A DNA stretch of 32,000 nucleotides from Xylanibacter ruminicola 23 (GTDB lineage Bacteria; Bacteroidota; Bacteroidia; Bacteroidales; Bacteroidaceae): positions 180,001 to 212,000 of the forward strand of contig NC_014033.1 of assembly GCF_000025925.1 (NCBI RefSeq), read 5' to 3'. Position numbers and translations under genes: made by a program. Shown here piece by piece: positions 1,400 through 31,791 of the stretch; within the stretch, counting starts at the first letter, position 1, and each line of letters begins with the position of its first letter. The notes beneath the pieces are model-generated. The model did no database searches and had not been told where the DNA came from. It saw only the letters and a list, made by a program, of their open reading frames with translations.

Positions 1400-1424
1400 A
1401 TCAACCCGAGAGTAATGCTTAATG

Positions 1425-1462
1425 ATCTACCTTTGCATCGTCGATAAGCGACAAAGGTAGAT
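1425..1462. promoter_or_regulatory. 11-bp-stem palindrome whose two arms each carry a TACCTTTG -7 box. Possible terminator, promoter, or both.
   Basis: ATCTACCTTTG (1425-1435) pairs with CAAAGGTAGAT (1452-1462) across a 16-nt loop and is followed by TTTTT. TACCTTTG at 1428-1435 lies 55 nt before the ATG at 1490. Confidence 0.5.
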
Positions 1463-1489
1463 TTTTAAGTATTAAAATAATAAGAAAAA

Positions 1490-1858: not shown

Positions 1859-1862
1859 TATA

Positions 1863-2120: not shown

Positions 2121-2177
2121 ACAATAGTAACTAACCGAGTCAAATGGGCCCAACGACTCACTAAAAACAAATTGATT

Positions 2178-2492
2178 ATGCGAAAATACATTGAAATCGA
2201 CGAAGAGGTGCTTAAAAGCATCATGGAAGGAACGTATGTGCAGGGCTCGTTGCACTATAATAAGCAGGCCAAGCGTATCGACTTTAACCACTATAAGCGT
2301 AAGAAACGCTTGAAGGATAAGGTAATTGCTATCCTGGAGCACGGCTGGCTGAAAGAGAGCCCTAAGAGAGTGAAGTACTACATCTCACTAAAGAAATCCA
2401 TCGGAACAGCGCGTATGATTGCTGCCATGGAACGTGAAAACCGCGTGGCCAGCAGCCACCTGATGGATCGAGAGATTGTAGATAGAGTTTAA
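2178..2492 (+). CDS. Hypothetical basic element protein (104 aa)
   Basis: ATG at 2178; the track start at 2172 is a TTG. Lys/Arg-rich. Confidence 0.55.
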   Translation: MRKYIEIDEEVLKSIMEGTYVQGSLHYNKQAKRIDFNHYKRKKRLKDKVIAILEHGWLKESPKRVKYYISLKKSIGTARMIAAMERENRVASSHLMDREIVDRV

Positions 2493-2509
2493 CTTAAAAA
2501 TTGGAATAT

Positions 2510-2953
2510 ATGGAAAAGAAACTGTATAAAGAAGTAAAGAAACTTGGATACAAGGTAATTGACTTTTATTGTCATTGGAGTTTCTATCGTCGTAAGAAAG
2601 ATAAGTCGATTATGCTGACTGCCCGTAAAGGTGACCTGTTGGCACGCGACATCTTTAGACTGATAATTGACAATGTTGAGCCAGATGCTGAAGGCCTGGT
2701 AATAGCCATGATTGGCATTATGCAGAGCTATAATTACCTGAAACTTGCGTTGCCTATGACTACTGGCAAGGAGGCACAGAAGCTGATAGAAGATTTTGAT
2801 AAATTATTCTATGGTGATTCATGGCGATGGGTAAAGCACGACCACATGCAGATAGGTTATGATTTCTTTTTTGGTGGTCACAAAGTTGATGGCGACAGAT
2901 TTAAAGAAACAATCGACAATATGCTTGCCCACGAAGATAGTAATAACGAATAA
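2510..2953 (+). CDS. Hypothetical element protein (147 aa)
   Basis: ATG at 2510; the track start at 2501 is a TTG. Ends 13 nt before the primase gene. Confidence 0.6.
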   Translation: MEKKLYKEVKKLGYKVIDFYCHWSFYRRKKDKSIMLTARKGDLLARDIFRLIIDNVEPDAEGLVIAMIGIMQSYNYLKLALPMTTGKEAQKLIEDFDKLFYGDSWRWVKHDHMQIGYDFFFGGHKVDGDRFKETIDNMLAHEDSNNE

Positions 2954-2966
2954 AAAAGGAGGTTGA

Positions 2967-5444: not shown

Positions 5445-5446
5445 GA

Positions 5447-5506
5447 TTGGTACATTGGTACAATGGTACATTTTAAACATTAAACATTGAACATTAAACA
5501 TTAAAG
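5447..5506. repeat. Composite tandem array: 3 x (T/A)TGGTACA octads followed by 4-5 x TTRAACA heptads (AACATT family)
   Basis: Read directly from the sequence. It fills the whole spacer between the primase stop (5444) and the peptidase ATG (5510). Confidence 0.85.
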
Positions 5507-5509
5507 AGT

Positions 5510-5962
5510 ATGGAACAGATAGTACAGTTAAACAGTAAAGCAAACCTCTCCCAGCACTTCACGCTGGGGGAGTTCACCAGGAGCAAGTATCCTGAGGTGT
5601 ATAACATCCCTAGCCATGAGGCTATCGCTAACCTTAAGCGATTGTGTGAGTGGTTGGAAGTATTGAGGGAGAAAGCCTCACATCCTATTATCATCAACTC
5701 AGGTTATCGATCACCGCAGTTCAATCGTAAGGTTGGTGGAGCTCCCACCAGTAATCACATAACAGGCTGTGCGGTAGATATTCGCACATCTGGGTATGAA
5801 CAGGCCATCTGCTATGCGGCCATCATTATCGATTATGCTAAAGAGAGTAATCAGGACTATGATGAGCTGCTAATAGAGAAGAACCGTTATGGTGCCGTGT
5901 GGTTGCACTTTGCAGTGAGACCGAAAGATAATCGACGTAAGGTTGCATTTATTATTGTTTAA
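5510..5962 (+). CDS. Peptidase M15A family (zinc D-Ala-D-Ala carboxypeptidase-like) cell-wall hydrolase, phage-lysin type
   Basis: SGYRSPQFNRKVGGAPTSNHITGCAVDI contains the H-x6-D metal motif. The distal His lies in WLHFAV. Size (150 aa) is typical of the family. Confidence 0.85.
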   Translation: MEQIVQLNSKANLSQHFTLGEFTRSKYPEVYNIPSHEAIANLKRLCEWLEVLREKASHPIIINSGYRSPQFNRKVGGAPTSNHITGCAVDIRTSGYEQAICYAAIIIDYAKESNQDYDELLIEKNRYGAVWLHFAVRPKDNRRKVAFIIV

Positions 5963-11700: not shown

Positions 11701-12024
11701 ATCGACCGCAACGGTGTGCCTATGCTGAGCGACGTTCCTGTCATCGTGAGTGGTCTTGAGGCCGACCTCAACTCTACCTCTTCACGTTGGCTCACCAGTG
11801 CCAGCTATCTCATTCTGAAGAACATCAACCTTAGCTACCAGCTGCCTAAGGAACTGGTGCGCAAGGCTGGTATCGAGAACGTGATGCTCACACTGACCTG
11901 CGAAAACCTCTTCACACTGACTGCACGCAAGGGTATGAACCCACAGCAGAACTTTGCTGGCACTCAGAGTGCTACCTTCGTTACACCACGCATCTTCTCT
12001 GCAGGGGTGAACATCAAGTTTTAA
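8752..12024 (+). CDS. SusC/RagA-family TonB-dependent outer-membrane transporter
   Basis: Signal peptide, a carboxypeptidase-regulatory-like domain (TVTGTVV..GATIQVVG), the plug signature DEVVVVAYGTQKKTSLTGS, a C-terminal beta-barrel ending in F, and a SusD gene immediately downstream. Confidence 0.95.
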   Translation: MKRLSMMLAGLFLSVGMALAQTTVTGTVVSYEDNEPIIGATIQVVGNAGIGTITDYDGNFTLEVPEGMKTLRITYVGMEPLEVAVSTKTLKIQLRNDVHTLDEVVVVAYGTQKKTSLTGSIQEVKSDAIELRPTTSVASALEGSVTGVQVNSTVGAPGEDPQIRIRGVGTVNGSSSPLYILDGVPYSGSISDLNPQDIESMSVLKDAASAALYGNRASNGVILITTKKGKQGKMNITFDVKQGTYSRGIAEYDRLGAREWMEAQWLNMKNNRMAAGDDAATAGAYASKHLIADRLQLNIFDKADEALFTADGKLVSDARIKGTYGEDLDWYKQAIGHGYRQEYNFNANGATEKSDYLVSLGYLDEQGYLKTSGFDRLSARLSANIQPAEWLKVGVSLNATHQNFNAGYGTGNANTNPFNFCRKISPIYPVHAHNLTTGEYYLDGMGNLMYDGGSYIDPDGQVVHTRNQYPDRHIIWENQLNTDKIIRNTVNSIAYANIILPYNFTLSLKGSLNLSNDSENKYYSAVIGDGKANNGRLRRTDVRQKNYTFQQQLHWRQEFGVHSVDALLGHESYKLTRNYMASGKDSEIVPNLTNLLNFTQFAQLYDYNDNYALESYLGRVRYGYDSRYNIEFSFRRDGSSRFAKNARWGNFWSTGASWVISNEKFMKQYDWVNYLKLRADYGEVGNDSGSGLYGYMALYQQDVHAGKGAYYISQLPNEDLKWETGQSWGVAIEGRLFNKLNFNVEYFDRRNKDLIFNVYNPLSAGATDTTTPQSVTTMNLGTISNHGVEISGDMDVYKSKNWSVNVGASITFEKNKVVKLPEQNRDGIIDGTKKIVEGMDRYQFYTYTWEGVNTKNGLSLYKFNGDEYFFTDGGTTYGNPAGAEITGSQKNAVVVIDGTPYSYLTTYGKREFHGSAMPTAYGSFNFSVSYKAFSLYTLFTYQLGGKVMDSNYQLLMNSQSTPTALHKDVLKGWTAEQATATDAIDRNGVPMLSDVPVIVSGLEADLNSTSSRWLTSASYLILKNINLSYQLPKELVRKAGIENVMLTLTCENLFTLTARKGMNPQQNFAGTQSATFVTPRIFSAGVNIKF

Positions 12025-12027
12025 GAG

Positions 12028-12056
12028 TGAATAGTTAATAGTTAATAGTGAATAGT
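12028..12056. repeat. 4 x (G/T)(G/T)AATAG heptad array filling the SusC-SusD spacer
   Basis: GTGAATAG TTAATAG TTAATAG TGAATAG lies between the stop at 12024 and the ATG at 12060. A related GAATAGT AATTACT AATATAT occurs at 8711-8731 upstream of SusC. Confidence 0.85.
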
Positions 12057-12059
12057 TTT

Positions 12060-13604: not shown

Positions 13605-14748
13605 TGGCGCAAGCTACGGTATAAGCGGTGGTCCAAGCGGCTTGGAAATTAAAGCCACCTGTGACACCATCGATATCGAGAACCTCTCCAGCGAAATAAA
13701 CGCTGGGGAGGTTTTTGCTTTCTAAGGTGTTGGGATTCACACTCGCCAAGTCGACACCGCCACAGGTCACAAACTCGTCCTTAAAGGCCGAACGACCTGC
13801 TATCTGGTACTGATCGTTGCACAGGGCATTGGTCAGTCGGTTCAGCTCCTTCTGGTTCAGATTCTGCCAACGGTTCTGGGCACGTTCGCCAAGGGTCTTG
13901 GCTACGAGGTAATCCCACAAACGGCTGGGCAATCCAAAGGGACGGATGGTGGCAATCTGTTTTTGCGGATGCTGGGCGATGATGGTGCGCAACTCCTGCT
14001 GGATGTCGGGCTCCTTGAGCGAGGTCCAGTTCACAGCCAAAGGCATCTGGTAGTTATGCTCGTGCAAATCGCGAGCGGCATGACTACTGAGCTTCAGAAT
14101 GGCTGGTCCGCTCATGCCCCAGTGGGTGATGAGCAACGGACCGTTACTGCGGAACTTGGTGCCTGGGATCGAGGCGGTGGCATCTTCTACCACCGTGCCC
14201 ATCAAGGCACGCAAGGCCTCGTCGGCAATGCTGAAGGTGAACAATGACGGAACGGGTTCGATGGTGGGTACGCCAGCCATCGATGCAGTACCACCACCTG
14301 TGGTGATGACCTTGAAATCAAAGTCGTTCAGCTCGTCGAGACTCTCGATTTTATGCTGGATGCATATCTCGATGTTCTTTCGGCGGGCTTCGGCCAAGAA
14401 GAGATTAATGATGGTATGCGAATCCTGTGAGGCGGGAAATACGCAGTTGTCGTCCTGGGTGGTAAGCTTTACCCCATGGTTCTCGAACCACGCATAGGCA
14501 TCGCGGTAATCGAAGGTTTTAAACAGTCGTTTCAGCAAACGGTGCCCACGTGGATATACCTGTTGCAAATCGCTTACAGCCTCGAACGAGTTGGTGCAGT
14601 TACATCTGCCACCACCAGATACCTCGACCTTGGCCAGCACCTTCTTGGATTTCTCAAAAATGGTGATGTCCATATCGGGACACATTTCCTTGAGGTTAAC
14701 GGCCAGGAAGAATCCAGCCGCACCTCCACCTACTATCGCAGTCTTCAT
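13561..14748 (-). CDS. HI0933/YhiN(BaiN)-family NAD(P)/FAD-dependent oxidoreductase
   Basis: N-terminal Rossmann motif VGGGAAG and the family-typical SGGGRCNCTN. 395 aa. Its 3' end overlaps the SusD 3' end by 44 nt. Confidence 0.88.
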   Translation of the reverse strand: MKTAIVGGGAAGFFLAVNLKEMCPDMDITIFEKSKKVLAKVEVSGGGRCNCTNSFEAVSDLQQVYPRGHRLLKRLFKTFDYRDAYAWFENHGVKLTTQDDNCVFPASQDSHTIINLFLAEARRKNIEICIQHKIESLDELNDFDFKVITTGGGTASMAGVPTIEPVPSLFTFSIADEALRALMGTVVEDATASIPGTKFRSNGPLLITHWGMSGPAILKLSSHAARDLHEHNYQMPLAVNWTSLKEPDIQQELRTIIAQHPQKQIATIRPFGLPSRLWDYLVAKTLGERAQNRWQNLNQKELNRLTNALCNDQYQIAGRSAFKDEFVTCGGVDLASVNPNTLESKNLPSVYFAGEVLDIDGVTGGFNFQAAWTTAYTVACAISQQARCSQSPSEG

Positions 14749-14790
14749 TTTTACATTCTTACATTTTTACATTTTCTCATTTCTCAATGA
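14749..14790. repeat. Octad array TTACATTY x3 then TCTCATTT / CTCAATGA (minus strand: GAAATGAG AAAATGTA AAAATGTA AGAATGTA)
   Basis: Occupies the spacer between the acetate--CoA ligase stop (14777-14779) and the flavoprotein start (14748), and runs into the ligase 3' end. Confidence 0.8.
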
Positions 14791-16951: not shown

Positions 16952-19900
16952 ATGAAGAAATTTCTCATCATAACTATAGCTTTGATCATGCCAATGTTCC
17001 TATTCGGACAATCCTATTCGGCACTCTGGAAACAGGTTTCAGAGGCTGAAGAGAAAGATCTGCCCAAGACCCAGTACGAGGTGCTGCAGAAGATTGTGAA
17101 GAAGGCCGAGAAGGAACAACAATACGGACAGCTGCTCAAGGCCGAACTCTATGCCGCCCAAACGATGGTGGATATCGCCCCTGATTCGCTGAAACCTGAG
17201 GTGGACCGCATTGTGGCACGCTATCAGAAGGCTACCGATAAGGTGCAGCGATTGGTTTACCAAACGGTGCTTTGGCAGATTGATAACGAGAACTATAGCA
17301 TTGATTTAGGCATCAAGAAACCCCAGCTTACCCCCGAACTGTGCCAGTTGTTGGCTGCAACCAAGGAGCGCTCGTATCAGCCTTTTGTGGTGATGGGTGC
17401 CGATGCTTCGGTGTTTGGCAACGATATGCTGAGTGTGATAGGTGCCGAGTTGGGTGAGTATCAGCAGTTGCGCGATTATTATCAGAAGACAGGCAACCAG
17501 AAGGCCGTGAGCATTATCGATGCCCATCTGGCTATCGACAGATATAATGCACTGCCTTATAACACCCCCGCTGTGGATCGTATCGCTTTTATTGATGATG
17601 CCATTGCCAAGTGGGGTAGATGGCCTGAGATTAACTATCTGCGTAATGCCAAAAAAGAGCTCACCAATCCCCAGTTCCACCTGTCGTATCCCCTCTCTGT
17701 GGTTCGTCCCATGCAGGCCCAGCAGGTGATGCTGAATGATTTACGCCATCTGTCGCAACTCACTATGACGGTGTATCCCGTACGTTGCGAAGGTGATATC
17801 GAACACTCGCCATCAAGCGAAAAGGGCTGGACTAAGATCCGCCCGTTGTTAGGAGCCCCTGTGGTTACAGAAACGAAACATTTTGCCGCTCGCCCCGATT
17901 ACGAGATTTTCGAAGATAGTATGACGCTGAAGGGTCTGCCTATAGGCATGTACCTGGTGGAGTTTAAGAGCAATCCCACTACCGAGGTGATTCGCACGCT
18001 GTATCATGTCACCAACGTCTTTACGATTGCCGAGGCCCAGCCCGATGGCAAAACACGTTACGAGGTGGTGAATGCTACGACTGGTCAGCCTATCGCCGAT
18101 GCCCATCTGCGTATCAAGGAACGTCCATATTCGGTATTTGCCTATACCGATACCGACAAGGCGGGTGCAGTGCTGTATGGTAATGGTCGTTACGAATTCT
18201 ACGGGGCTGATCGTACGGTGAATCAGACCGCTATTTTTACCGATCGCAGCATTTATCGTCCAGGTCAGACGGTACATGCTTCGGCATTGGTGTATCAGGT
18301 GGAGAAGGGCATCAAACAAACCGTTCGTGCCCATCAGACTTTAAAATTTGTGCTGCGCGATGCCAACCATAAGGTGGTGGCCGAGAAGCAGACCGAGAGC
18401 GATGCCTATGGTGTGGGGGCAGTAGATTTTACCCTACCTGCCAAGGGACTTACAGGCTTGTTTACCATCCAGGTTGAGAATGCCTCGCGGCCCATTCGTG
18501 TTGAGGAGTACAAGCGTCCCACATTCCATGTGGATTTTGCAGAATATAAGGATGCCTATAAGGCTGGCGATGTGCTTGATATCAAAGGTACAGCACTCAG
18601 CTATGCGGGTGTGCCTGTTCAGGATGCCAAGGTAGCGTATAAGGTATTGCGCCGTACCGCCCTTTGGTGGTGGTCGTACAATCGCTATTACGACGAGGGT
18701 GCTCTGGGCTACAGCAATCACGGTACCGAGATTTGTTCGGGCGAAGCTACCACCGATGCCGATGGTAACTTTGTGATAAAAATGCCACTGGAGATGCCCG
18801 AAACCAAGTACACTATGTTCTACAACTTTGTGTTGCAGGCCGATGTAACTGATATGGCTGGCGAAACGCACCAGGGACAGTTTACGTTGCCTTTGGGCAA
18901 TCGTCCAACCGCACTCAGCATCGATCTCGACGAAAAAGTGCTGGTTGAAGATAACCCCCAAGCCACATTCCATCTGCGCAATGCCGCAGGTAAGGATATC
19001 GATGCCGAAGTACGTTATCGCATTGATGGAGGCGAGTGGCAGATGGCCAGAACAAATCAGCAGATAGCATTGGCTAAGTTGGCTTCTGGTAAGCATCGTG
19101 TAGAGGCTGCGTATGAGGATCAGACCATCGATCGAACCTTCGTGGTATTCTCGCTCGATGATGAGAAACCTGCTACTGATACAGATGATTGGTTCTACCA
19201 GTCGGCTACCCAGTTTCCTAACGACGGCACGCCTGTTACCATCCAGGTGGGTAGCTCGGATCAGAATGTGCATATCTTCTATAGCATCTTCTCGGGGCAT
19301 AAGCTGATAGAGCAGGGGAGTGTGGATAAGAGTAACGAGCTGATAAACCGTAAGTTTACCTATCAGGATGAGTACGAAAACGGCTTGCTGCTTACCTTTG
19401 CTTGGGTAAAGAATGGCAAGTGTTATACCCATACCGCCCAGATACAGCGCCCTATGCCCAATAAGAAATTGACGCTGGAGTGGGCCACCTTCCGCGATCG
19501 TCTGACACCAGGACAGAAGGAAGAGTGGACACTGACCATCAAGGATTGTGAAGGCAACCCTGTTGACGCTAACTTGATGGCTACACTCTACGATCAGAGT
19601 CTGGATCAGTTGGCTAAGCATCAGTGGAATTTCCGTCCTTATCAGTGGATAGCAATGCCTTCGGTAAATTGGCAGTATGTTTCGCCCCGTAGCTTTGGCC
19701 GATTTGCATCGCACGATTGGAAGGGCTTTAGCTTTGACGGGATAGGTTTCAGCTTGTTTGATCACAATGTTTATCCCCAGGCATTCTATCGCCACTCGTT
19801 CCGCGGTGTTAAGACTTTGAGTCGTGGCCATGTGGGTGATGATATGATATTAGAAGTGGCCGAAGCCGCTCCTATGGCTGCCGATATGAAGATGATGAAG

Positions 19901-22252
19901 CAGAGCACCGATTCGGGGATCGCTTATGCCGCTAATGGTGCCGAAGAGGCTGCTAATGAAGAGCAGACTGCAGCATCAGATGTGCAGGTACGCGAAAATC
20001 TCAATGAAACCGCTTTCTTCTATCCCCAGCTTACTACCGATGCCAATGGTCGCGTGGCTATCAAGTTTACTTTGCCAGAGAGTTTGACTACCTGGCAGAT
20101 GTTAGGCTTTGCGCACACGCGCGATTTACATTATGGTAACATTGCGGGTGAGGCTGTGGCTAAGAAGGATGTGATGATACAGCCTAACGTGCCTCGCTTT
20201 ATCCGCGAGGGCGATAAGGCCACCATCTCTGCCCGTATCTTTAGCGAGAAACAGGCACAAGGCAAGGTAACCCTGCAGCTCATCAATGCCGAGACTAACG
20301 CCATCGTCTACGAAAAGTCGCAGCAAGTATCGCTCGCCGCAGGTTCTACAACCCCCGTCGAGTTTGAATGGTCAATGGTCCATGGTCCGCTCGGCTTTGC
20401 CGCTTGGCACGTCCAAGAATGTTCAATGTTGATCGTCAAAATGACGATCAGCGGTAAAGGCTTCAGCGATGGTGAGCAGCATTATCTGCCTGTATTGCCA
20501 GCTACCGAGCGAGTTACTGTTTCGCTGCCTATCACCCAGCACCAGCCTGGTACTGCTACCATCGATTTGAACAAGTTGGTTCCTGCTGATGCTAAGAACA
20601 CCAAACTTACACTCGAATATACCAACAATCCCGTTTGGCTCATGGTGCAGGCTCTGCCAGCAGTAGGCTCGCCCAGCGACGATAACGCCATCTCACTGGC
20701 CGCCTCGTTCTATGCCAACGGACTGGGACGATATATCATCAATCAGAATCCACAGATCAAGAACGTGTTCGAGCTCTGGAAGCAGGAGCCTAACGAGGCC
20801 TCGCTCACCTCTCAACTGGAAAAGAATGAGGATTTGAAGAATCTTGTTCTGAACGAAACTCCTTGGGTGCTGGATGCCGACAACGAGACTGAACAGAAGC
20901 ATCGCTTGGTTGACTTCTTCGACGAGAATCTGATGAACAACCGTCTTTCTACCACCGTCGAGAAGTTGCAGAAACTGCAGAACGCTGAGGGTGCGTGGAC
21001 CTGGTTCCCGGGCATGCCAAGCTCGTTCTATACCACTGTAGCTGTAAGCGAAATGCTGGTACGCCTGAATTCCCTCACCCAGAAGCAGAGTTCTACCAGC
21101 ACCATGCTGAATAAGGCCTTTGGCTATATGGGCAACGAGATAAAAGATCTGGTAAAGGAACTGAAGAAAGCCGAGAAGAAGGGCGAGGTTTACTTCCCAA
21201 GTTATAAGGCGCTACAGTGGCTGTATCTGGTAACCCTTGATGATCGCCAGTTGCCAGCCGATGTTCAGCAGGCCAACAGCTATCTCATCGAGCTACTTAA
21301 AAAAGATATCAAGCGTCAGAGCATTTACGATAAGGCCCTTGCAGCAGTCATCTTTGCCAAGGTTGATGCCAAGCGTGCTCAGGAATATGCCCAGTCGCTC
21401 AAGGAGTACACCGTTTACCGCGAGGATATGGGACGCTATTACGATACCCCACGTGCAGGTTACTCTTGGTTTGATTATAAGATTCCAACCCAGAGTATCG
21501 CCATCGAGGCCCTGCAGCAGTTAACTCCTGATGATGTGCAGACTATCGATGAGATGCAGCGCTGGTTGCTGCAGCAAAAGCGCACCCAGGCTTGGGATAC
21601 ACCTATCAACAGCGTGAATGCCGTTTATGCCTTCCTGAAAGGTCAGGAGAGCCGTTTGGCACAAAGCTCAAACATGCCTGCTGTCCGTATCGATGCCCGC
21701 ACCGTTGCGCTGCCCAAGGCAACAGCAGCTATCGGCTATGTAAAGACCGAATTGCCAAAGGGTAAGCAACTCACCATCCGCAAAATCACCGATGGAACCT
21801 CATGGGGTGCCGTTTATGCCCAGTATTTCCAGCCCGCCAAGCAGGTTGAGAATAGCGGCAGTGGTCTCACCATCAAGCGCGAGTTCTTGAAAAATAATTG
21901 TCAATTGTCAACTGTCAATTATCAATTCACGGTCGGAGACCGTATCCGCGTCCGCCTTACCATCACTGCCGATCGCGATTACGATTTTGTGCAGGTGGTT
22001 GATAAGCGTGCGGCTTGCATGGAGCCCGTTAAGCCGTTGAGTGGTTATCATGCGGGTGCTTATATCACACCTCGCGATAATGCCACATGCTACTTCTTCG
22101 GCATGCTGTCGAAGGGTACCCATGTGATCGAAACCGAGTATTATATCGATCGAGCCGGAACCTACGAAACAGGTACCGCCACCGTAGAGTGTGCCTATGC
22201 ACCCGAGTTCCGCGCCGTTACTCACTCGGAAACATTAAAGATTAAACATTAA
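16952..22252 (+). CDS. Bacterial alpha-2-macroglobulin family protein (MG-domain rich, 1766 aa), thioester-less type
   Basis: Signal peptide MKKFLIITIALIMPMFLFGQ at the internal ATG 16952; the track ORF from 16823 overlaps the divergent promoter region. Size and conserved blocks (GFSDGEQHYLPVLP, DYDFVQVVDKRAACMEP) fit the family. No C-x-E-Q thioester motif occurs anywhere in the translation. Confidence 0.88.
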   Translation: MKKFLIITIALIMPMFLFGQSYSALWKQVSEAEEKDLPKTQYEVLQKIVKKAEKEQQYGQLLKAELYAAQTMVDIAPDSLKPEVDRIVARYQKATDKVQRLVYQTVLWQIDNENYSIDLGIKKPQLTPELCQLLAATKERSYQPFVVMGADASVFGNDMLSVIGAELGEYQQLRDYYQKTGNQKAVSIIDAHLAIDRYNALPYNTPAVDRIAFIDDAIAKWGRWPEINYLRNAKKELTNPQFHLSYPLSVVRPMQAQQVMLNDLRHLSQLTMTVYPVRCEGDIEHSPSSEKGWTKIRPLLGAPVVTETKHFAARPDYEIFEDSMTLKGLPIGMYLVEFKSNPTTEVIRTLYHVTNVFTIAEAQPDGKTRYEVVNATTGQPIADAHLRIKERPYSVFAYTDTDKAGAVLYGNGRYEFYGADRTVNQTAIFTDRSIYRPGQTVHASALVYQVEKGIKQTVRAHQTLKFVLRDANHKVVAEKQTESDAYGVGAVDFTLPAKGLTGLFTIQVENASRPIRVEEYKRPTFHVDFAEYKDAYKAGDVLDIKGTALSYAGVPVQDAKVAYKVLRRTALWWWSYNRYYDEGALGYSNHGTEICSGEATTDADGNFVIKMPLEMPETKYTMFYNFVLQADVTDMAGETHQGQFTLPLGNRPTALSIDLDEKVLVEDNPQATFHLRNAAGKDIDAEVRYRIDGGEWQMARTNQQIALAKLASGKHRVEAAYEDQTIDRTFVVFSLDDEKPATDTDDWFYQSATQFPNDGTPVTIQVGSSDQNVHIFYSIFSGHKLIEQGSVDKSNELINRKFTYQDEYENGLLLTFAWVKNGKCYTHTAQIQRPMPNKKLTLEWATFRDRLTPGQKEEWTLTIKDCEGNPVDANLMATLYDQSLDQLAKHQWNFRPYQWIAMPSVNWQYVSPRSFGRFASHDWKGFSFDGIGFSLFDHNVYPQAFYRHSFRGVKTLSRGHVGDDMILEVAEAAPMAADMKMMKQSTDSGIAYAANGAEEAANEEQTAASDVQVRENLNETAFFYPQLTTDANGRVAIKFTLPESLTTWQMLGFAHTRDLHYGNIAGEAVAKKDVMIQPNVPRFIREGDKATISARIFSEKQAQGKVTLQLINAETNAIVYEKSQQVSLAAGSTTPVEFEWSMVHGPLGFAAWHVQECSMLIVKMTISGKGFSDGEQHYLPVLPATERVTVSLPITQHQPGTATIDLNKLVPADAKNTKLTLEYTNNPVWLMVQALPAVGSPSDDNAISLAASFYANGLGRYIINQNPQIKNVFELWKQEPNEASLTSQLEKNEDLKNLVLNETPWVLDADNETEQKHRLVDFFDENLMNNRLSTTVEKLQKLQNAEGAWTWFPGMPSSFYTTVAVSEMLVRLNSLTQKQSSTSTMLNKAFGYMGNEIKDLVKELKKAEKKGEVYFPSYKALQWLYLVTLDDRQLPADVQQANSYLIELLKKDIKRQSIYDKALAAVIFAKVDAKRAQEYAQSLKEYTVYREDMGRYYDTPRAGYSWFDYKIPTQSIAIEALQQLTPDDVQTIDEMQRWLLQQKRTQAWDTPINSVNAVYAFLKGQESRLAQSSNMPAVRIDARTVALPKATAAIGYVKTELPKGKQLTIRKITDGTSWGAVYAQYFQPAKQVENSGSGLTIKREFLKNNCQLSTVNYQFTVGDRIRVRLTITADRDYDFVQVVDKRAACMEPVKPLSGYHAGAYITPRDNATCYFFGMLSKGTHVIETEYYIDRAGTYETGTATVECAYAPEFRAVTHSETLKIKH

Positions 22253-22265
22253 ATATTATAATATT
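22230..22265. repeat. Heptad array AAACATT AAAGATT AAACATT AAATATT ATAATATT
   Basis: Overlaps the last codons and the stop (22250-22252) of the A2M gene and fills the spacer up to the DUF1573 ATG at 22267. Confidence 0.85.
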
Positions 22266-22266
22266 G

Positions 22267-23337
22267 ATGAAGAAATTAACAGTAATACTACTCTCAATTC
22301 TCGCTTCTCAGCTTTCGCCTCTCCAGGTGAATGCACAGCGTCTTACCGTAAAAACAACCACCATCGATGTGGGTGCTACGGGCTACGAACAGCCTGTTAC
22401 AGCCACCTTCGAGATGCGTAACAAGGGTTTGCGCCGATTGGTTATTCAGAGTGTGAAACCCGATTGTGGTTGCACCAAAATAGAATATCCCAAAGAGGTG
22501 GGTATTGGCGAGCGATTCACTATTAAGATGACTTACGATGCCCGTATGTTAGGTCACTTCCAGAAGATGTGTCTGGTAAAGAGTAATGCTTCAAAAAAGC
22601 CGTTCTACCTTACCATGACGGGTGTGGTTAAGAGTGATTTCAGAGATTACTCGGGTGAGTATCCTATCGAGATGGGCGACCTGCTGTTGGATAAGGCCGT
22701 GCTTGAGTTCGATGATGTGAACAAGGGCGATGTGCCTGAGCAGGAGATTCACATCCTGAATAACGGAAAGAAGGCCATGCGTCCTAACCTGATGCACCTG
22801 CCTCCTTATCTCACCGCTATCACCAGTCCCGACCATCTGTTACCTGGTCGTGCGGCTACCATCAGCGTGAAGTTGCTCTCAGAGAAACTGCGTGATTATG
22901 GCTTGACCAAGACCACTCTTTATATGGCCCATAACCCAGGCGATAAGGTTCGTCAGGATTTCGCCATCGATGTGGCTACCGTACTGTTGCCCGATATGAA
23001 GCAGTTCGAGAAAGAGAATAAGGAACTGGCACCACAGTTGCAGATGTCGGCTACCGATGTGGATTTTACCGACTTTGGCGGCAAGACCAAGAAAACGGCT
23101 ACTGTTACGTTGCAGAATACAGGTGTTTCGCCCTTGAAGATTACCTCGCTCCAGCTCTTTACGGCTGGCTTGAAGGTTACCCTCTCGAAGAGTGAGATTG
23201 CCCCAGGTCAGAGTGCTAACTTAAAGATTACGGGTATTGCCGAAGAGCTCCAGAAGCTTCGTACACGTCCCCGTATCCTGATGATTACCAACGATCCCGA
23301 CCACGCCAAAGTGGTGGTCAACATCAAGTTGCAGTAA
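22267..23337 (+). CDS. DUF1573 domain-containing secreted protein (tandem Ig-like/PapD-like repeats)
   Basis: Signal peptide, and the DUF1573 hallmark VKPDCGCTKIEYPKE near the N-terminus. ATG at 22267 (TTG at 22264 in the track). Confidence 0.8.
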   Translation: MKKLTVILLSILASQLSPLQVNAQRLTVKTTTIDVGATGYEQPVTATFEMRNKGLRRLVIQSVKPDCGCTKIEYPKEVGIGERFTIKMTYDARMLGHFQKMCLVKSNASKKPFYLTMTGVVKSDFRDYSGEYPIEMGDLLLDKAVLEFDDVNKGDVPEQEIHILNNGKKAMRPNLMHLPPYLTAITSPDHLLPGRAATISVKLLSEKLRDYGLTKTTLYMAHNPGDKVRQDFAIDVATVLLPDMKQFEKENKELAPQLQMSATDVDFTDFGGKTKKTATVTLQNTGVSPLKITSLQLFTAGLKVTLSKSEIAPGQSANLKITGIAEELQKLRTRPRILMITNDPDHAKVVVNIKLQ

Positions 23338-23340
23338 AAA

Positions 23341-23368
23341 GAATGTTCAATCTTCAATGTTCAATGTC
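23341..23368. repeat. Heptad array GAATGTTC AATCTTC AATGTTC AATGTC
   Basis: Fills the spacer between the DUF1573 stop (23337) and the meaB ATG (23371). Confidence 0.85.
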
Positions 23369-23370
23369 AT

Positions 23371-24471
23371 ATGGAACATCCCGAAAATAGCTCAGAATAT
23401 GCAGGCTTGCAGGTAAACAGTGGGGTAGAGCAACCCTCTATCGTTAACCCCTACCTCAAGCGTGGTCGTTTCCGTCGTCACGAACTCTCTGTAGGTGAGA
23501 TGGTAGAAGGCATCCTCAAGGGCGATGTCACCATCCTCTCGCAGGCTGTTACGCTGATTGAGAGTGTGAATCCCGACCATCAGGCCCGTGCTCAGGAGGT
23601 GATCAACAAGTGCTTGCCTTATAGTGGCAATTCCATCCGCATTGGTATCAGTGGTGTACCAGGTGCAGGTAAAAGTACCTCGATCGACGAGTTCGGTATG
23701 CACGTACTCAAGGAGAAGGGTGGAAAGCTGGCTGTGCTGGCCATCGACCCTAGTAGTGAGCGCACCAAGGGCTCGATTCTGGGCGATAAAACACGTATGG
23801 AAAAGTTGGCACAACATCCGTCGTCGTTCATACGTCCTAGCCCATCAGCTGGCTCGTTGGGAGGTGTGGCCCGCAAGACTCGCGAGACGATTATTCTGTG
23901 CGAGGCCGCTGGTTTCGATAAGATATTTGTTGAGACCGTGGGTGTTGGTCAGAGCGAAACAGCCTGCCACTCGATGGTAGATTTCTTCCTGCTCATTCAG
24001 GTGGCTGGTACCGGCGACGAGTTGCAGGGTATTAAGCGCGGCATTATGGAGATAAGCGATGGCATCGTGATTAATAAGTGCGATGGCGATAATGTGGATC
24101 GTTGCCAGATGGCGGCTACCAATTTCCGTAATGCCCTCCACTTCTTCCCCATGCCCGATAGCGGTTGGAGTCCTAAGGTGCTATGCTACAGTGGATTCTA
24201 CGGTACAGGCGTAAAAGAGATATTCGACATGATTTACGAGTATATCGATTTTGTAAAGGCCAACGGCTATTTTGCCTATCGTCGCAATGAGCAGGCTAAA
24301 TACTGGATGTACGAGAGCATCAACGAGCATCTGCGACTCAACTTCTACAACAATCCCGCCATCCAGGCTCAGTTGGGCACCGCCGAAACTGCTGTTCTCG
24401 CAGGTCAGAAAACATCGTTCGTAGCTGCTCAGGATCTTCTCGACGAATATTTCTCTTTGCTCAAAAAATAA
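23371..24471 (+). CDS. meaB: Methylmalonyl-CoA mutase-associated GTPase MeaB (ArgK family)
   Basis: P-loop GISGVPGAGKST, LAIDPSS, GDKTRM and the NKCD specificity motif. 366 aa. Confidence 0.92.
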   Translation: MEHPENSSEYAGLQVNSGVEQPSIVNPYLKRGRFRRHELSVGEMVEGILKGDVTILSQAVTLIESVNPDHQARAQEVINKCLPYSGNSIRIGISGVPGAGKSTSIDEFGMHVLKEKGGKLAVLAIDPSSERTKGSILGDKTRMEKLAQHPSSFIRPSPSAGSLGGVARKTRETIILCEAAGFDKIFVETVGVGQSETACHSMVDFFLLIQVAGTGDELQGIKRGIMEISDGIVINKCDGDNVDRCQMAATNFRNALHFFPMPDSGWSPKVLCYSGFYGTGVKEIFDMIYEYIDFVKANGYFAYRRNEQAKYWMYESINEHLRLNFYNNPAIQAQLGTAETAVLAGQKTSFVAAQDLLDEYFSLLKK

Positions 24472-24511
24472 TGTTTAATCTTTAATGTTTAATGTTTAAT
24501 ATTTAATCATT
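24470..24511. repeat. Six-unit heptad array AATGTTT AATCTTT AATGTTT AATGTTT AATATTT AATCATT
   Basis: Begins inside the meaB stop codon (24469-24471) and ends 1 nt before the ispH ATG (24513). Confidence 0.9.
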
Positions 24512-24512
24512 C

Positions 24513-25388
24513 ATGATTATCGAAATAGATAACGGCAGTGGTTTCTGCTTCGGAGTTACCACCGCTATCAAAAAAGCCGAAGAAGAGCTCGCTCAGGGCG
24601 AAACACTCTATTGTTTAGGTGATATTGTACACAACGGTATGGAGTGCGAACGCCTGCGCGAGATGGGACTCATTACCATTAATCACGACCAGATGCGCGA
24701 ACTGCACAACGCCAAAGTGTTGCTGCGTGCCCATGGCGAGCCTCCCGAAACCTACGAACTGGCCCGCAAAAACAATATCGAGATTATCGATGCTACCTGC
24801 CCTGTGGTGCTGAAACTGCAGAAGCGTATCAAGGAGCAGTACGAAACCTCGCCCAATCTTCCCGAAGGTGAGGAGGCACAGATTGTGATTTTTGGTAAGA
24901 AAGGTCATGCCGAAGTGCTTGGTCTGGTGGGTCAGACTCATAGTAGTGCGATTGTGATTGAGAGTAGCGACGAGGTGACTAAGCTTGATTTTACCCGCGA
25001 TATCTACCTGTATTCGCAGACCACGAAATCGCTCGACGAGTTCCGTCGCATCATCGATTATATCCAGACGCATATCTCGCCCAACGCCACGTTTAAGAGT
25101 TTCGATACCATCTGTCGTTCGGTAGCCAACCGCATGCCCAATATCTCGCAGTTTGCCACCAAGCACGATCTGGTACTCTTTGTGTGTGGCCGAAAGAGTT
25201 CAAACGGCAAGGTGCTTTACAACGAGTGCCTGCGTGTAAACCCCAATACCCACCTGATTGAGGACCCACAGGAGATTGAGCCCGAGTGGTTGAAGGGTAT
25301 CGAGAGTGTAGGTATTTGTGGTGCCACCAGCACGCCCCGTTGGTTGATGGAGCAGTGCCGCGACGCCATTCAGAATATGCAGCAATGA
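24513..25388 (+). CDS. ispH: 4-hydroxy-3-methylbut-2-enyl diphosphate reductase
   Basis: GFCFGV (first Fe-S Cys), ATCPVV (second Cys), a third Cys in DTIC, and the SSNG motif. 291 aa. Confidence 0.93.
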   Translation: MIIEIDNGSGFCFGVTTAIKKAEEELAQGETLYCLGDIVHNGMECERLREMGLITINHDQMRELHNAKVLLRAHGEPPETYELARKNNIEIIDATCPVVLKLQKRIKEQYETSPNLPEGEEAQIVIFGKKGHAEVLGLVGQTHSSAIVIESSDEVTKLDFTRDIYLYSQTTKSLDEFRRIIDYIQTHISPNATFKSFDTICRSVANRMPNISQFATKHDLVLFVCGRKSSNGKVLYNECLRVNPNTHLIEDPQEIEPEWLKGIESVGICGATSTPRWLMEQCRDAIQNMQQ

Positions 25389-26053: not shown

Positions 26054-26247
26054 TTTAGGTTCAGGTGGTTTTATTTCTTGCCGAAATTACCAAATTTTTT
26101 CATAAAAATATGGCATTAGCATATTTCTTGGCATTTTTGCTCCCACACGTGGGAAATATTTTTTCCACACGAGAGCGCTATTTTTTATGCTTGTAAAGGT
26201 TATACTGTATACGATTTGTGTAACGAATAATGTAAAATATTATGAAC

Positions 26248-26255
26248 TATCTTTG
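26248..26255 (+). promoter_or_regulatory. -7 box TATCTTTG positioned to start transcription at about 26261-26263, the edge of inverted-repeat arm A
   Basis: Exact TAnnTTTG match. There is no good -33 TTTG at 19-21 nt (the nearest is at 26215-26218, 29 nt away). No CDS follows for about 500 nt. Confidence 0.4.
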
Positions 26256-26421
26256 TATTTGTGCGGATACAGAAATACAGAATACAGTTTTGTTGTGAGC
26301 ATTGTCAATCCAAAAATTCAGTAATTCAGAATTCAGTTTTCTCATGAGCACAAAGATGACTCAGATATCAGATATCAGTTTATTTGGCTAAGCATTTGTA
26401 ACTTTAAATATACTCTATTAG

Positions 26422-26473
26422 AATATTATATATTATTATATATATTATAATATATATAATAATATATAATATT
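26422..26473. repeat. Perfect 52-bp palindrome composed only of A and T
   Basis: Position i pairs with position 26895-i for every base from 26422 to 26473, with the symmetry centre between 26447 and 26448. It breaks at 26421 (G) versus 26474 (T). Confidence 0.95.
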
Positions 26474-26593
26474 TATAAGATTGATAATTAGAGAGTGAAG
26501 CGATAGTTGTATTAGCTCACAAGAAAACTGATATCTGATATCTGAGTCACACACAGATTATCCCTCTCCAAATAACCTGTATTCTGTATTCTG

Positions 26594-26623
26594 TATCCAC
26601 TGATGTTTCTTTATCAGTGGATA
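26594..26623. other. Hairpin with an 11-bp stem and 8-nt loop, overlapping the end of arm A'
   Basis: TATCCACTGAT (26594-26604) pairs with ATCAGTGGATA (26613-26623) across the loop GTTTCTTT. Confidence 0.8.
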
Positions 26624-26720
26624 TATAGCTTCCTAAAAAACTGAATTACTGAATTCTGAATTTTCTCGCTCAGTTTAGATAAGTTGGTGGTATGGTGTTG
26701 CTAATAAAAAAACGAAAAAA

Positions 26721-26752
26721 TTTGTTTTTTCGCTTACTTATTCGTACCTTTG
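26721..26752 (+). promoter_or_regulatory. Promoter TTTG-N20-TACCTTTG for trmB
   Basis: TTTG at 26721-26724 and TACCTTTG at 26745-26752, 16 nt before the ATG at 26769. Confidence 0.6.
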
Positions 26753-26768
26753 CAGCACAATTTTGATT

Positions 26769-30555: not shown

Positions 30556-31791
30556 TTATACGGATTTAATTACTGAGTGAATGGTACCCTTGGCTAGGCG
30601 GGTCTCGATTTCGGCGCCGGGGGGCAGCTGCGATGCGTCTTTTACGGCCCGGCCGTTATGCATAGTGATGCTGTAGCCGCGAGCCAGCAACAGGGTTGGG
30701 TCGAGGGCTTTGAGTTTCTCGTCCATCAGTTGCAGACGATGTCTCTCTGATGTGAATCGGCGCTCTATCAACATTGGCAGGCGGGTATAGAGGGCATCAA
30801 TCTTAGCCTCCTGTCGGGTTTTTACAATCGAGAACAATCGGGGGATAGCCTCGGATATAATTGACAATTGAGAATTGGCAATTGAAAATTTTTGCTGAAC
30901 GTAGTGCGTAATCATGCTCTGGGCTCCTTCGATGGTTTCGAGTACGCCCTTCAGGTGGTCGATGAGCAAGGCGGCTGCAGCTGTGGGTGTTTTTACGCGG
31001 GTGTGCGATATCATATCGAGTATGCTCTCGTCGCGCTCATGGCCGATACCTGTTATGATAGGTATTGGGAAGTTGGCCACATTTTCGGCCAAAGCCAAGG
31101 TGTCGAAACCGCTCATATCGCTGGTAGCACCACCACCACGGATAATCACTACGCAATCAAATGGCATATCGTAAATCTGCTCCAGAGCACTGATGATGCT
31201 CTGTTCAACGCCCTCGCCCTGCATGATAGCAGGAAAGAGCTGTGTCTCGAATTTAAAGCCGTAAGGGTTATCAGCCAGTTGGTTGCAGAAATCGCCGTAG
31301 CCAGCGGCTGTTTGCGATGAGATAACGGCAATACGCTGGCAGAAAACGGGTAACTGTAGTTCCTTTTGCAGGTCGAACACGCCCTCGGCCTTAAGCTTCT
31401 GGATGATTTCCTGACGCTTGCGGGCCATATCGCCTAAGGTGTAGGTGGGGTCGATGTCGGTCACGATCCACGAGAAACCGTAAGCCTCGTGAAACTGCGG
31501 GTAAACCTGTAGCAGCACTTTCATACCGGCATGCAGTTGTTGACCGGTAGTGCGCTCGAAGTAAGGACGGATGGTGAGCCACTTGTTGGCCCAGCATTTG
31601 GCTGAGGCTTTGGCGATAGGTGTGGCGGTTTGTTCATCCTTCTGAATAAGCTCCATATAACAATGACCACGTGATTCGCGGCACTCGCTGAGTTCGGCTT
31701 CTACCCAGTATTCCATGGGCAAAGCATCCTCGATAGCCTCGCGTACCAAGCGGTTAAGCTCGAATAATGTGATATGGCGCTCTGTATTCAA
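30556..31791 (-). CDS. xseA: Exodeoxyribonuclease VII large subunit (apparent TTG start)
   Basis: OB-fold N-terminus (ITLFELNRLV...YWVEAELSE), catalytic core (VISSQTAAGYGDF, IIRGGGATSDM) and a C-terminal coiled coil. The only in-frame ATG would remove 25 conserved N-terminal residues. Confidence 0.88.
   Translation of the reverse strand: MNTERHITLFELNRLVREAIEDALPMEYWVEAELSECRESRGHCYMELIQKDEQTATPIAKASAKCWANKWLTIRPYFERTTGQQLHAGMKVLLQVYPQFHEAYGFSWIVTDIDPTYTLGDMARKRQEIIQKLKAEGVFDLQKELQLPVFCQRIAVISSQTAAGYGDFCNQLADNPYGFKFETQLFPAIMQGEGVEQSIISALEQIYDMPFDCVVIIRGGGATSDMSGFDTLALAENVANFPIPIITGIGHERDESILDMISHTRVKTPTAAAALLIDHLKGVLETIEGAQSMITHYVQQKFSIANSQLSIISEAIPRLFSIVKTRQEAKIDALYTRLPMLIERRFTSERHRLQLMDEKLKALDPTLLLARGYSITMHNGRAVKDASQLPPGAEIETRLAKGTIHSVIKSV

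Follow-up and report, generated by a model that had tools for sequence, protein, structure and literature searches.

Three consecutive gene junctions of Xylanibacter ruminicola 23 carry tandem 7-nt repeats, and 22 nt at the first junction are the reverse complement of 22 nt at the third. Does this arrangement constitute a conserved RNA or DNA switch around DUF1573 and meaB, or does it belong to a more general class of repeats? The stretch of DNA analysed (the window, 32,000 nt) contains the following genes and junction arrays:

16952..22252, plus strand: alpha-2-macroglobulin (A2M)-family gene with MG2, A2M and bMG10 domains (Pfam, database gene call)
22267..23337, plus strand: DUF1573 gene (Pfam, database gene call)
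23371..24471, plus strand: meaB, methylmalonyl-CoA mutase-associated GTPase (Pfam)
24513..25388, plus strand: ispH/lytB (Pfam, LytB/IspH)
22230..22258, unstranded: J1 array, AAACATT AAAGATT AAACATT AAATATT, in RAACATT orientation on the plus strand (TRF, period 7, 4.1 copies; period 14, 93% matches)
23341..23368, unstranded: J2 array, GAATGTTC AATCTTC AATGTTC AATGTC (sequence and TRF)
24469..24511, unstranded: J3 array, T AATGTTT AATCTTT AATGTTT AATGTTT AATATTT AATCATT (TRF, 5.6 copies; heptads from 24470)

The sequence and TRF bear out the heptad arrays predicted at the A2M/DUF1573, DUF1573/meaB and meaB/ispH junctions: TRF reports all three at period 7 with 3.7–5.6 copies, and also gives a period-14 reading for J1 and J3. 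The original prediction had the arrays filling their junctions, which holds for J2, occupying the 33-nt spacer between the DUF1573 stop and the meaB ATG, and for J3, which extends from the meaB TAA up to 1 nt short of the ispH ATG. J1, in contrast, falls largely within the 3′ end of the A2M coding sequence (codons E-T-L-K-I-K-H-stop), its units 1–3 forming the final codons and the TAA stop at 22250–22252; the A2M/DUF1573 spacer proper measures just 14 nt, given that the DUF1573 ATG is at 22267 in the database gene call.

Assignment of J1–J3 to one repeat family is supported, and the opposite orientation of J1 relative to J2 and J3 is seen directly in the sequence (RAACATT vs. AATGTTY). The pattern AATGTTYAATSTTYAATGTTY, with up to two mismatches allowed, gave nine overlapping matches in the window, spread over four arrays, and no match in any of 100 dinucleotide shuffles, placing the AATGTTY/RAACATT arrays far beyond chance.

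The fourth of these arrays, absent from the original prediction, lies immediately before the start codon (ATG at 5510) of an M15-peptidase gene. The window also holds 7–8-nt arrays of other units, three intergenic and two in coding sequence:

5473..5509, unstranded: fourth AATGTTY/RAACATT-family array, TTAAACA, 4.7 copies, RAACATT orientation (TRF, repeat finder, pattern search)
5446..5472, unstranded: 8-nt array of ATTGGTAC, 3.4 copies, next to the array at 5473, whose spacer it shares (TRF)
12021..12057, unstranded: heptad array of TTAATAG, 5.3 copies, an unrelated unit of the same element class, filling a susC/susD-like junction
14742..14782, unstranded: 8-nt array (CATTTTTA) of the same element class, filling the 28-nt spacer of two minus-strand genes
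21896..21927, plus strand: heptad array of AATTGTC, 4.6 copies, within the A2M coding sequence, the encoded segment being a hypervariable bMG10 loop (TRF)
30859..30890, minus strand: heptad array within xseA, codons 301–311, with sense-strand TTNNCAA units

A survey of 1.47 Mb from 80 related loci showed how common such arrays are. Counting arrays of at least 2.5 copies, TRF found 95 intergenic and 64 coding arrays of period 7, 41 and 13 of period 8, and 1 and 5 of period 6; a lag scan gave 135, 9 and 5 arrays at periods 7, 6 and 5, respectively. Tandem arrays of 7 nt thus outnumber those of 6 nt by more than 15:1. Shuffled intergenic DNA yielded 0–3 period-7 arrays per replicate vs. 82 in the real sequence, an approximately 80-fold excess. 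About a third of the arrays reside in coding sequence. Variation within arrays is limited to single unit positions (45 variable positions vs. 74.5 ± 2.5 expected), and G+C-rich units, such as GCGTTCC and CCCCATTCG, exist too.

Across the 80 loci the arrays are non-randomly placed relative to gene boundaries, as anticipated, with 0.98 arrays per kb in co-directional spacers vs. 0.14–0.18 per kb in convergent or divergent ones, a 5–7-fold enrichment. They often fill the entire span from stop codon to start codon, and of 130 co-directional arrays, 57 reach to within 12 nt of the next gene's start. There is no strand rule: the bias relative to transcription is not significant (34 vs. 23 near-start arrays, p = 0.18), and metagenome matches to the pattern show no orientation bias (17 vs. 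15). Of the 15–80-nt co-directional spacers, 24% contain an array in the close rumen Prevotella group and 3% in the distant group; no arrays occur in the loci from Bacteroides and Phocaeicola.

In related species the orthologous junctions often have arrays as well, though of different units (e.g. TTCAATC, TTGTCAA, CTTAACTT, CTCATCT and GACTATG), and many orthologous junctions have no array, with 0–12-nt or overlapping stop/start arrangements. Turnover is visible between strains. In L084 and L085, whose meaB is 97.5% identical in nucleotides and whose MeaB protein is identical, J3 is shorter by exactly 7 nt (one unit) and a TTTCAAT/TATCAAT/TGTCAAT array stands in place of J2. The closest other species (L001, MeaB 98% identical in amino acids) has two units fewer in J3, and strains of a second species sharing one MeaB protein carry J2 variants of 36, 35 and 28 nt. 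In one species without arrays the spacers are nearly invariant. Clonal copies of strain 23 from six or more assemblies all have arrays of equal length, so hypermutability is not apparent over short times.

The STRR elements of cyanobacteria, like the arrays described here, form families of tandem heptamers scattered through non-coding DNA; they belong to a different phylum, with other unit sequences and longer arrays. The Calothrix PCC 7601 STRR are among the heptanucleotide repeats cited in PMC4692102. Comparable repeats are already known in Xanthomonas, Nostoc and Beggiatoaceae, and our literature search found no report of heptad repeats in Prevotella or rumen Bacteroidota. As relayed in PMC4679880 and PMC4692102, Mrazek, Guo & Shah (2007) found heptamers to be the commonest prokaryotic long simple-sequence repeat (SSR) class, dominating over 5–6- and 8–11-nt units and mostly intergenic, and proposed polymerase slippage as the cause. 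The Prevotella arrays resemble long SSRs, so described, in their tandem 7-nt units, strong excess, heptamer dominance, mostly intergenic location and length variation between relatives, but many of them reach from the closing codons of one gene to the start codon of the next. Xanthomonas genomes each hold about 180 intergenic GGGAATC arrays, most of about four units (Rehm et al. 2015, PMC4692102). Arrays of this kind likewise occupy corresponding intergenic positions in related species, vary widely in length and sequence, and in some cases form inverted pairs. Unlike the AT-rich Prevotella units, which form several families per genome that differ between species, the Xanthomonas units and the GGGGAYT units of Nostoc are G-rich, able to form quadruplexes and dominated by one motif per genome (PMC4692102).

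The long-range match between J1 and J3 involves two arms:

22230..22251, unstranded: left arm of the perfect 22-nt inverted match (repeat finder; RNA duplex −23.3 kcal/mol)
24469..24490, unstranded: right arm (repeat finder), paired with the left arm in the minimum-free-energy fold

The repeat finder confirmed that the arms are exact reverse complements. Both had been described as including a TAA stop codon; the right arm holds the whole meaB TAA, the left arm only the TA of the A2M stop. As a conserved feature the match fails: of 46 syntenic genomes, only 2 have J1–J3 complementarity of 10 nt or longer. It shrinks to 13 nt in L001, while L006 has a 20-nt J1–J3 inverted match made up of another unit (TTGAAGA/TCTTCAA). 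The G-C-G unit order is not conserved either, J3 of L001 being without the C unit.

Sharing of 10-mers within loci reaches 4.2% in direct and 5.3% in inverted orientation vs. 0.8% and 0.56% between loci, and six AATGTTY arrays, in both orientations, lie within 51 kb of this chromosome. Same-family pairs 350–3000 nt apart are direct in 16 cases and inverted in 10 across all loci, so the opposite orientation of J1 looks like a coin flip. Among same-family pairs separated by less than 350 nt, inverted ones prevail (18 vs. 4, p = 0.004). The presence of one repeat family in both orientations most likely explains the 22-nt match, as a side effect rather than as a conserved RNA or DNA switch.

J1–J3 are probably heptanucleotide SSRs of the prokaryotic long-SSR class, generated by slippage and tolerated, nearly neutrally, as AT-rich spacers. 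Slipped-strand mispairing in replication, in a 7-nt and sometimes a 14-nt register, would create and resize arrays; a point change in one unit could be copied by further slippage, giving arrays of two unit variants that differ at one position, like the G and C units. Arrays would persist where harmless, and they are found in short gaps between co-transcribed genes and, in orientations free of stop codons, in tolerant protein loops. A few favoured unit families recur per genome in either orientation, here AATGTTY/RAACATT, presumably through occasional inter-array templating by gene conversion or template switching. The J1–J3 match would then be two copies of one 14-nt-period family, facing opposite directions by chance. 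The constant length among clonal assemblies weighs against this reading, and slippage by itself explains neither the mostly inverted close pairs nor the spread of one family to sites kilobases apart.

The enrichment in stop-to-start spacers, and the fact that many species keep arrays at the same junctions, may be due to selection and not to mere tolerance. It is possible, if rather unlikely, that the arrays are selected as A/U-rich unstructured leaders upstream of operon-internal starts, slippage only supplying raw material; such leaders would offer a landing or standby platform to ribosomes that initiate without Shine-Dalgarno sequences, to protein S1 or to cold-shock proteins (an OB fold spans about 7 nt). 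The landing-pad idea is compatible with the co-directional enrichment, the proximity of array ends to starts, and the higher A+T content (77% vs. 66% in other leaders) and weaker folding (mean −3.3 vs. −5.5 kcal/mol, p = 3 × 10^−4) of array leaders; the missing strand rule does not speak against it because an A/U-rich array is A/U-rich either way round. An equal role, via S1, Csp or Csr, has been proposed but is unproven for TAACTGA repeats, which occur in 2–6 copies, mostly a few nucleotides upstream of start codons (PMC4679880). The Prevotella arrays share this position, but TAACTGA is a single fixed motif, "forward" relative to the start codon, whereas their motif differs and their orientation is mixed. 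However, arrays do not fold less than their own shuffles (median z = 0), so the low folding reflects composition, not the repeat. The array-less orthologous junctions, the third of arrays in coding sequence, the G+C-rich units and the out-of-frame ATGs that J2 places just 5′ of the meaB start also weigh against selected leaders.

Contingency "rheostats", in which unit gain or loss would alter stop-to-start spacing or frame and tune or switch downstream or host genes, are improbable. Expression-modulating heptanucleotide SSRs are known in Haemophilus influenzae, where they consist of many perfect copies, lie in the promoters or ORFs of genes for surface proteins and vary in number by slippage, with demonstrated switching. 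The Prevotella arrays, too, have 7-nt units whose number varies among strains (J3, and J2 of the second species), and a single-unit change in a coding array would shift the frame; but they are few imperfect copies between housekeeping genes. Slippage should be slow because there are only 3–6 imperfect units, clonal assemblies are identical, in-coding arrays keep frame in every genome seen, and the genes involved include meaB, ispH and xseA, not surface or restriction genes only.

Pairing of the 22-nt arms over 2.2 kb of polycistronic RNA, as an RNase III-type site or a loop coordinating DUF1573-meaB expression or decay, is very improbable and the predicted processing duplex is not supported. 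The perfect duplex matches the minimal RNase III substrate of about 22 bp, pairs in the minimum-free-energy structure of the naked 2,341-nt RNA (22200–24540) and has counterparts in L006 and L001. It has only 3 G-C pairs, however, and lies where ribosomes are expected, the left arm in translated A2M codons and both at stop codons; the window contains no Rfam family match, and neither the 46 syntenic genomes nor the pairs 350–3000 nt apart favour inverted complementarity. Inversion of 22252–24468 as a switch or rearrangement hotspot flipping DUF1573-meaB is scarcely credible: the repeat reaches both stop codons and would therefore keep coding ends intact, meaB of L012 is inverted relative to A2M-DUF1573 and synteny on contig L087 breaks right after J3, but all seven assemblies of the species and the 46 syntenic species keep the same orientation, the Pfam-annotated neighbours include no recombinase, the L012 meaB/DUF1573 boundary has no array, L087 may be an assembly chimera, and an AT-rich homology of 22 bp is close to the minimum that RecA-dependent recombination requires.

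J1–J3 are typical of a class of rapidly changing 7-nt tandem repeats that is found throughout the rumen Prevotella lineage. Their effect on the operon is most likely passive, that of an AT-rich, weakly folded spacer, which would be compatible with Shine-Dalgarno-independent initiation in Bacteroidota.

The three heptad arrays of the original prediction were recovered between 22100 and 24700 exactly as described, both on reading the sequence and by TRF, which assigned a period of 7 with 4.1, 3.7 and 5.6 copies to J1, J2 and J3 (the arrays at the A2M/DUF1573, DUF1573/meaB and meaB/ispH junctions, respectively) and also read J1 and J3 at period 14. Pfam identifies the junction genes as A2M (MG2, A2M, bMG10), DUF1573, MeaB and LytB/IspH. 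With at most two mismatches, AATGTTYAATSTTYAATGTTY gives nine overlapping matches in four arrays of the window, against 0 across 100 dinucleotide shuffles, an excess over the composition-matched expectation. The arrays are real and far from randomly arranged, and they are one case of a lineage-wide, slippage-type heptanucleotide repeat load that fills operon-internal spacers.

A contingency-locus SSR, as in phase variation, would sit in a promoter or ORF, where unit changes switch expression; of the three arrays, J2 and J3 occupy stop-to-start gaps, and J1 overlaps the end of A2M, consisting mostly of its final seven codons (E-T-L-K-I-K-H) followed by TAA at 22250-22252. The A2M/DUF1573 spacer is 14 nt, since the database gene calls begin DUF1573 at 22267; TAA-bearing units terminate every frame. 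At 24469-24499 the meaB stop overlaps an ATG (TAATG), and in this frame J3 holds two mini-ORFs of four codons each, MFNL and MFNI, with another TAATG at the stop of the former; across arrays, sense-strand ATGs are not enriched (22 sense, 25 antisense). The Bacteroidota -7 promoter motif (TAnnTTTG) was not seen when J1-J3 were read through.

When all intergenic stretches were printed, most short spacers between co-oriented genes of the window proved to be 7-8-nt tandem units of various sequences. The AATGTTY/RAACATT family, to which the three junction arrays belong, accounts for six arrays in 51 kb of this chromosome, beside several other unit families. Placed against the gene calls, all six are at co-directional junctions, the sense strand being A-rich in four and T-rich in two.

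Tandem arrays in the window
5446-5472, ATTGGTAC array, intergenic stretch
5473-5509, TTAAACA array, fourth of the AATGTTY/RAACATT family, RAACATT orientation, abutting the ATG at 5510
12021-12057, TTAATAG array, susC/susD-like junction
14742-14782, CATTTTTA array, intergenic stretch
21896-21927, coding heptad array in A2M
22230-22258, J1, A2M/DUF1573 junction
23341-23368, J2, DUF1573/meaB junction
24469-24511, J3, meaB/ispH junction
26267-26287, 26315-26337, 26361-26378, 26528-45, 26577-96 and 26640-62, arrays of the 26054-26762 spacer
30859-30890, coding heptad array in xseA, codons 301-311

The window sequence lies in contig BPTT01000001.1 of GCA_019973335.1 (3.58 Mb), and the homologues of its MeaB come from rumen Prevotella. 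A scan of species-representative genomes yielded 80 loci around meaB; the order A2M-DUF1573-meaB-ispH is kept in 46 of the 80. In these loci plus the window (1.47 Mb), TRF arrays of at least 2.5 copies numbered 95 intergenic and 64 coding at period 7, 41 and 13 at period 8, and 1 and 5 at period 6, and the period-7 density was 53.7 per 100 kb in intergenic DNA vs. 4.95 in coding DNA. Dinucleotide-shuffled intergenic DNA gave 0-3 period-7 arrays per replicate, compared with 82 in the real sequence. A threshold-neutral lag scan found 135 arrays at lag 7, 48 at lag 8, 9 at lag 6 and 5 at lag 5, so that heptamers are the predominant unit length in the lineage by both methods. Array density per kb was 0.98 in co-directional stop-to-start spacers, 0.14 in convergent and 0.18 in divergent ones, a five- to sevenfold difference. 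Among co-directional spacers of 15-80 nt, 24% carry an array in the close group (L001-L034 and the window) vs. 3% in the remaining loci (L035-L080), and loci labelled Bacteroides or Phocaeicola have no or almost no arrays.

Two simple accounts of the arrays were rejected: the array-length histogram has merely a weak bump at 31-33 nt, speaking against a discrete insertion size, and three-frame stops occur in 57 sense and 49 antisense cases, speaking against three-frame stop barriers. The survey also contains 27 intergenic tandem arrays whose period is exactly 22 nt, in some 3-4 copies each, spread over 21 of the fetched loci and none of them coding (for example L056 1735-1820; three consecutive arrays at L060 19395-19781; L022 2322-2405 and 20015-20105). 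Their units are mostly unrelated and their contexts mixed; they are reminiscent of the 23-nt BrickBuilt minisatellite of Porphyromonas gingivalis, without matching it.

Arrays are frequent at the same three junctions in other species (under a strict criterion, 11/32 close relatives at DUF1573/meaB, 11/32 at meaB/ispH and 4/32 at A2M/DUF1573), but their units differ, including TTCAATC, TTGTCAA, TGTTTAAT, CTTAACTT, CTTACAT, CTCATCT, CGTRATAA, GACTATG, CCTAAAA and more, and some species have a tight or overlapping stop/start instead. Numerous arrays start in the final codons of the preceding gene and take in its stop codon; they resemble duplicated 3' ends of that gene, as in the repeated AGGTGAAAAAGTAA of one relative (L018).

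Turnover is also visible between close strains, as in LSSRs. Contigs with the identical MeaB protein are of two kinds: clonal copies without a difference anywhere, and a second strain type (L084, L085) whose meaB is 97.5% identical at the nucleotide level. In this strain type J1 is the same as in the window, J3 has exactly one AATGTTT unit fewer, and J2 is a different array, TCTTAATTTTCAATTATCAATTGTCAATTTTCAATTTGAATC, similar to that of the closest other species (L001). In a second species (MeaB P0097), J2 measures 36, 35 or 28 nt among strains sharing one MeaB protein, and spacers are almost invariant in a species without arrays (P0014). Arrays of clonal assemblies are identical in length, consensus assemblies being unable to show minority alleles; contigs retrieved through other window genes were all clonal and thus uninformative about strain variation. 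Within arrays, variation is limited to single unit positions (45 variable vs. 74.5 ± 2.5 expected) and unit variants are usually laid out as XXYY or XYXY, the outcome expected from mutation followed by unit duplication. The proposed common descent of the three arrays is reasonable when applied to a genome-specific family. In another contig of the window's species (L087 1739-1800), synteny is lost directly after the J3 array, perhaps through rearrangement or chimeric assembly at the repeat.

The xseA array of the window (30859-30890) and that of L001 (17015-17049) encode peptides of equal length and position, KFSIANSQLSI and KLSAINYQLST, from heptads of TTNNCAA and CTATCAR, respectively; the peptides are similar, all units have changed in parallel, and this parallel change is concerted evolution. 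The A2M array at 21896-21927 encodes a hypervariable bMG10 loop; L001 is without this array, and the loop holds other low-complexity inserts in other species. Translated heptad arrays give low-complexity inserts in this same loop in the window, L003, L006, L008, L020 and L023, and A2M arrays recur at relative positions of ~0.41, 0.66, 0.73 and 0.93 in different species, with different units.

Comparison with known repeats places the arrays in an established class. Heptanucleotides are the commonest class of prokaryotic long SSRs, with polymerase slippage given as the cause, according to the account of Mrazek et al. 2007 in PMC4679880 and PMC4692102. The Prevotella arrays have all the defining features of the general heptanucleotide LSSR class: head-to-tail units of 5-11 nt in at least three copies occur at all three junctions (3.7-5.6 copies of 7-nt units), and close strains vary at the same locus (L084/L085 and the second species). 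Xanthomonas carries ~180 intergenic GGGAATC arrays per genome, mostly of about four units, which occupy the same gene pairs in relatives, vary in length and sequence and include some inverted pairs; Nostoc has GGGGAYT arrays (PMC4692102). Marine Beggiatoaceae have 169 TAACTGA sets, mostly just 5' of starts, with S1, Csp or Csr put forward as binders (PMC4679880). The window units AATGTTY/AATCTTY equal none of these motifs. In the stretches covered, Prevotella genomes appear to have several unit families each, unlike the single-motif families, and their arrays lack an orientation rule, in contrast to TAACTGA with its fixed forward orientation before starts. No description of such repeats in Prevotella was found in the literature searched.

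Among functional readings, the suggestion that the arrays serve as A/U-rich landing pads for the ribosome or S1 fares best. Leaders with arrays are richer in A+T than those without (77% vs. 66%) and fold more weakly (-3.3 vs. -5.5 kcal/mol, p=3e-4), and this A/U-rich, unstructured leader is a genuine property of the arrays, derived from composition. Selection is not apparent, however, in either the repeat arrangement or the strand: selection for low structure beyond composition was rejected, the z-score against the arrays' own shuffles being ~0, and arrays ending near start codons had no significant orientation bias (A>T 34, T>A 23, p=0.18; G>C 24, C>G 28). More than 120 metagenome contigs bear the pattern, from DNA of 17-63% G+C, and their co-directional cases are 17 T-rich vs. 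15 A-rich on the sense strand. With ratios of 34:23 near starts, 17:15 in the metagenomes and 4:2 in the 51 kb, no rule tying strand to transcription was found. At most, the evidence allows the arrays a passive or weakly selected role as A/U-rich spacers.

A repeat finder recovered the 22-nt inverted match as perfect, with 22230-22251 in J1 (arm 1) facing 24469-24490 in J3 (arm 2). Exact 10-mers are shared five to nine times more often within a locus than between loci (direct, 4.2% vs. 0.8%; inverted, 5.3% vs. 0.56%), so that each genome favours certain families, in either orientation. Same-family pairs less than 350 nt apart are predominantly inverted (18 inverted vs. 4 direct, p=0.004), those 350-3000 nt apart, the class of the 22-nt match, number 10 inverted vs. 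16 direct, and those beyond 3000 nt 13 vs. 11. The match had been read as a long-range RNA duplex and possible RNase III processing site. A naked-RNA duplex of the arms is predicted at -23.3 kcal/mol and appears in the in silico minimum-free-energy fold of 22200-24540; arm 1 lies in translated codons and both arms span stop codons. A duplex of at least 20 bp is thus predicted, yet complementarity is kept in just 2 of 46 syntenic genomes: only L001 (13 nt) and L006 (20 nt, of a different unit) reach at least 10 nt between J1 and J3, which makes the 22-nt match specific to the strain or species.

The other reading of the pair, DNA inversion of 22252-24468, fares worst: the 22-bp perfect pair provides the flanking inverted repeat of an inverton, but all assemblies of the species and the 46 syntenic species have one orientation, and no site-specific recombinase domain was found among 19 scanned proteins, the products of every large gene from 5.5 to 31.8 kb included. 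On these genome comparisons, neither the duplex nor the inversion is supported. In L012 (3522-6949), meaB alone runs opposite to DUF1573-A2M and the two stop codons abut; an array-mediated origin was rejected, as there is no array at its meaB/DUF1573 boundary.

A closer inverted pairing occurs in six species (L005, L006, L007, L009, L020 and L024), where the array at the 3' end of A2M has its reverse complement 63-91 nt downstream, in codons ~10-25 of the DUF1573 signal peptide (for example L006 8839-8869 and 8960-8986). The match reaches 24 perfect nt in L006, and the units vary by species (TTGAAGA, AAAAGGTA and AAGTGATA among them); the window is without this pair. Such pairs would fold as a hairpin around the DUF1573 start codon.

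Inverted partners are also present in the 709-nt spacer at 26054-26762, in which three heptad arrays (ATACAGA, AATTCAG and TCAGATA) are each paired across a 28+28-nt pure A/T palindrome (26422-26473), giving the un-nested order A B C ... C' A' B'. DnaA boxes show no enrichment here (13 vs. 8 ± 3 expected) and the GC skew does not turn, so that an oriC was rejected. A known RNA family was likewise rejected, Rfam at gathering thresholds giving no match anywhere in the window, this spacer included. The spacer is not conserved in relatives except for its last ~50 nt, where a TAccTTTG motif occurs. The architecture is found a second time 2.3-2.5 kb left of the window start on the same chromosome (L223 ~6811-7041), with (TGGTACA)3, ~55 nt of pure A/T palindromic sequence and an inverted (TGTACCA)3, in a divergent spacer adjoining an HU-HIG gene in a region resembling a mobile element. 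By its genes, the region formed by window 1-5962 and the preceding 9 kb (L223) resembles an integrated mobile element or the remnant of a prophage: it encodes a BT4734-like primase domain, an M15 peptidase, an HU-HIG protein and DUF6486, many of its other genes have no Pfam match, and it has short arrays of its own (TCGGAA, 497-519; ATACGGA, 1358-1400).

A far-reaching functional alternative, which we consider improbable, is that the genome-specific heptad families are cis-elements in rumen Prevotella, acting as tunable A/U-rich spacers that set operon translational coupling without Shine-Dalgarno sequences. The reader would be a putative OB-fold protein, S1 or a cold-shock protein, whose footprint is 7 nt; hairpins of inverted copies would gate downstream starts, as at the A2M-end/DUF1573 signal-peptide pairs of six species with different units, and the homogenisation of whole families would stem from co-evolution with this binder and not from neutral conversion.

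If slippage-type repeat load is the correct reading, the junction arrays exemplify a general property and are not a new regulatory device. The 7-nt repeats of rumen Prevotella are dense and fast-evolving: the sampled loci have ~16 arrays per 100 kb, and about a quarter of short co-directional spacers contain one. Such repeats affect the annotation of gene starts and operons, are possible strain-typing markers, mark likely breakpoints in metagenome assemblies and supply low-complexity inserts to surface proteins, the A2M homologue among them. By these data, some process spreads one unit family genome-wide in both orientations, and some process makes neighbouring copies predominantly inverted. 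Should the arrays turn out to be selected leaders in this Shine-Dalgarno-less lineage, they would provide a natural, titratable means of studying how its ribosomes reach internal starts.
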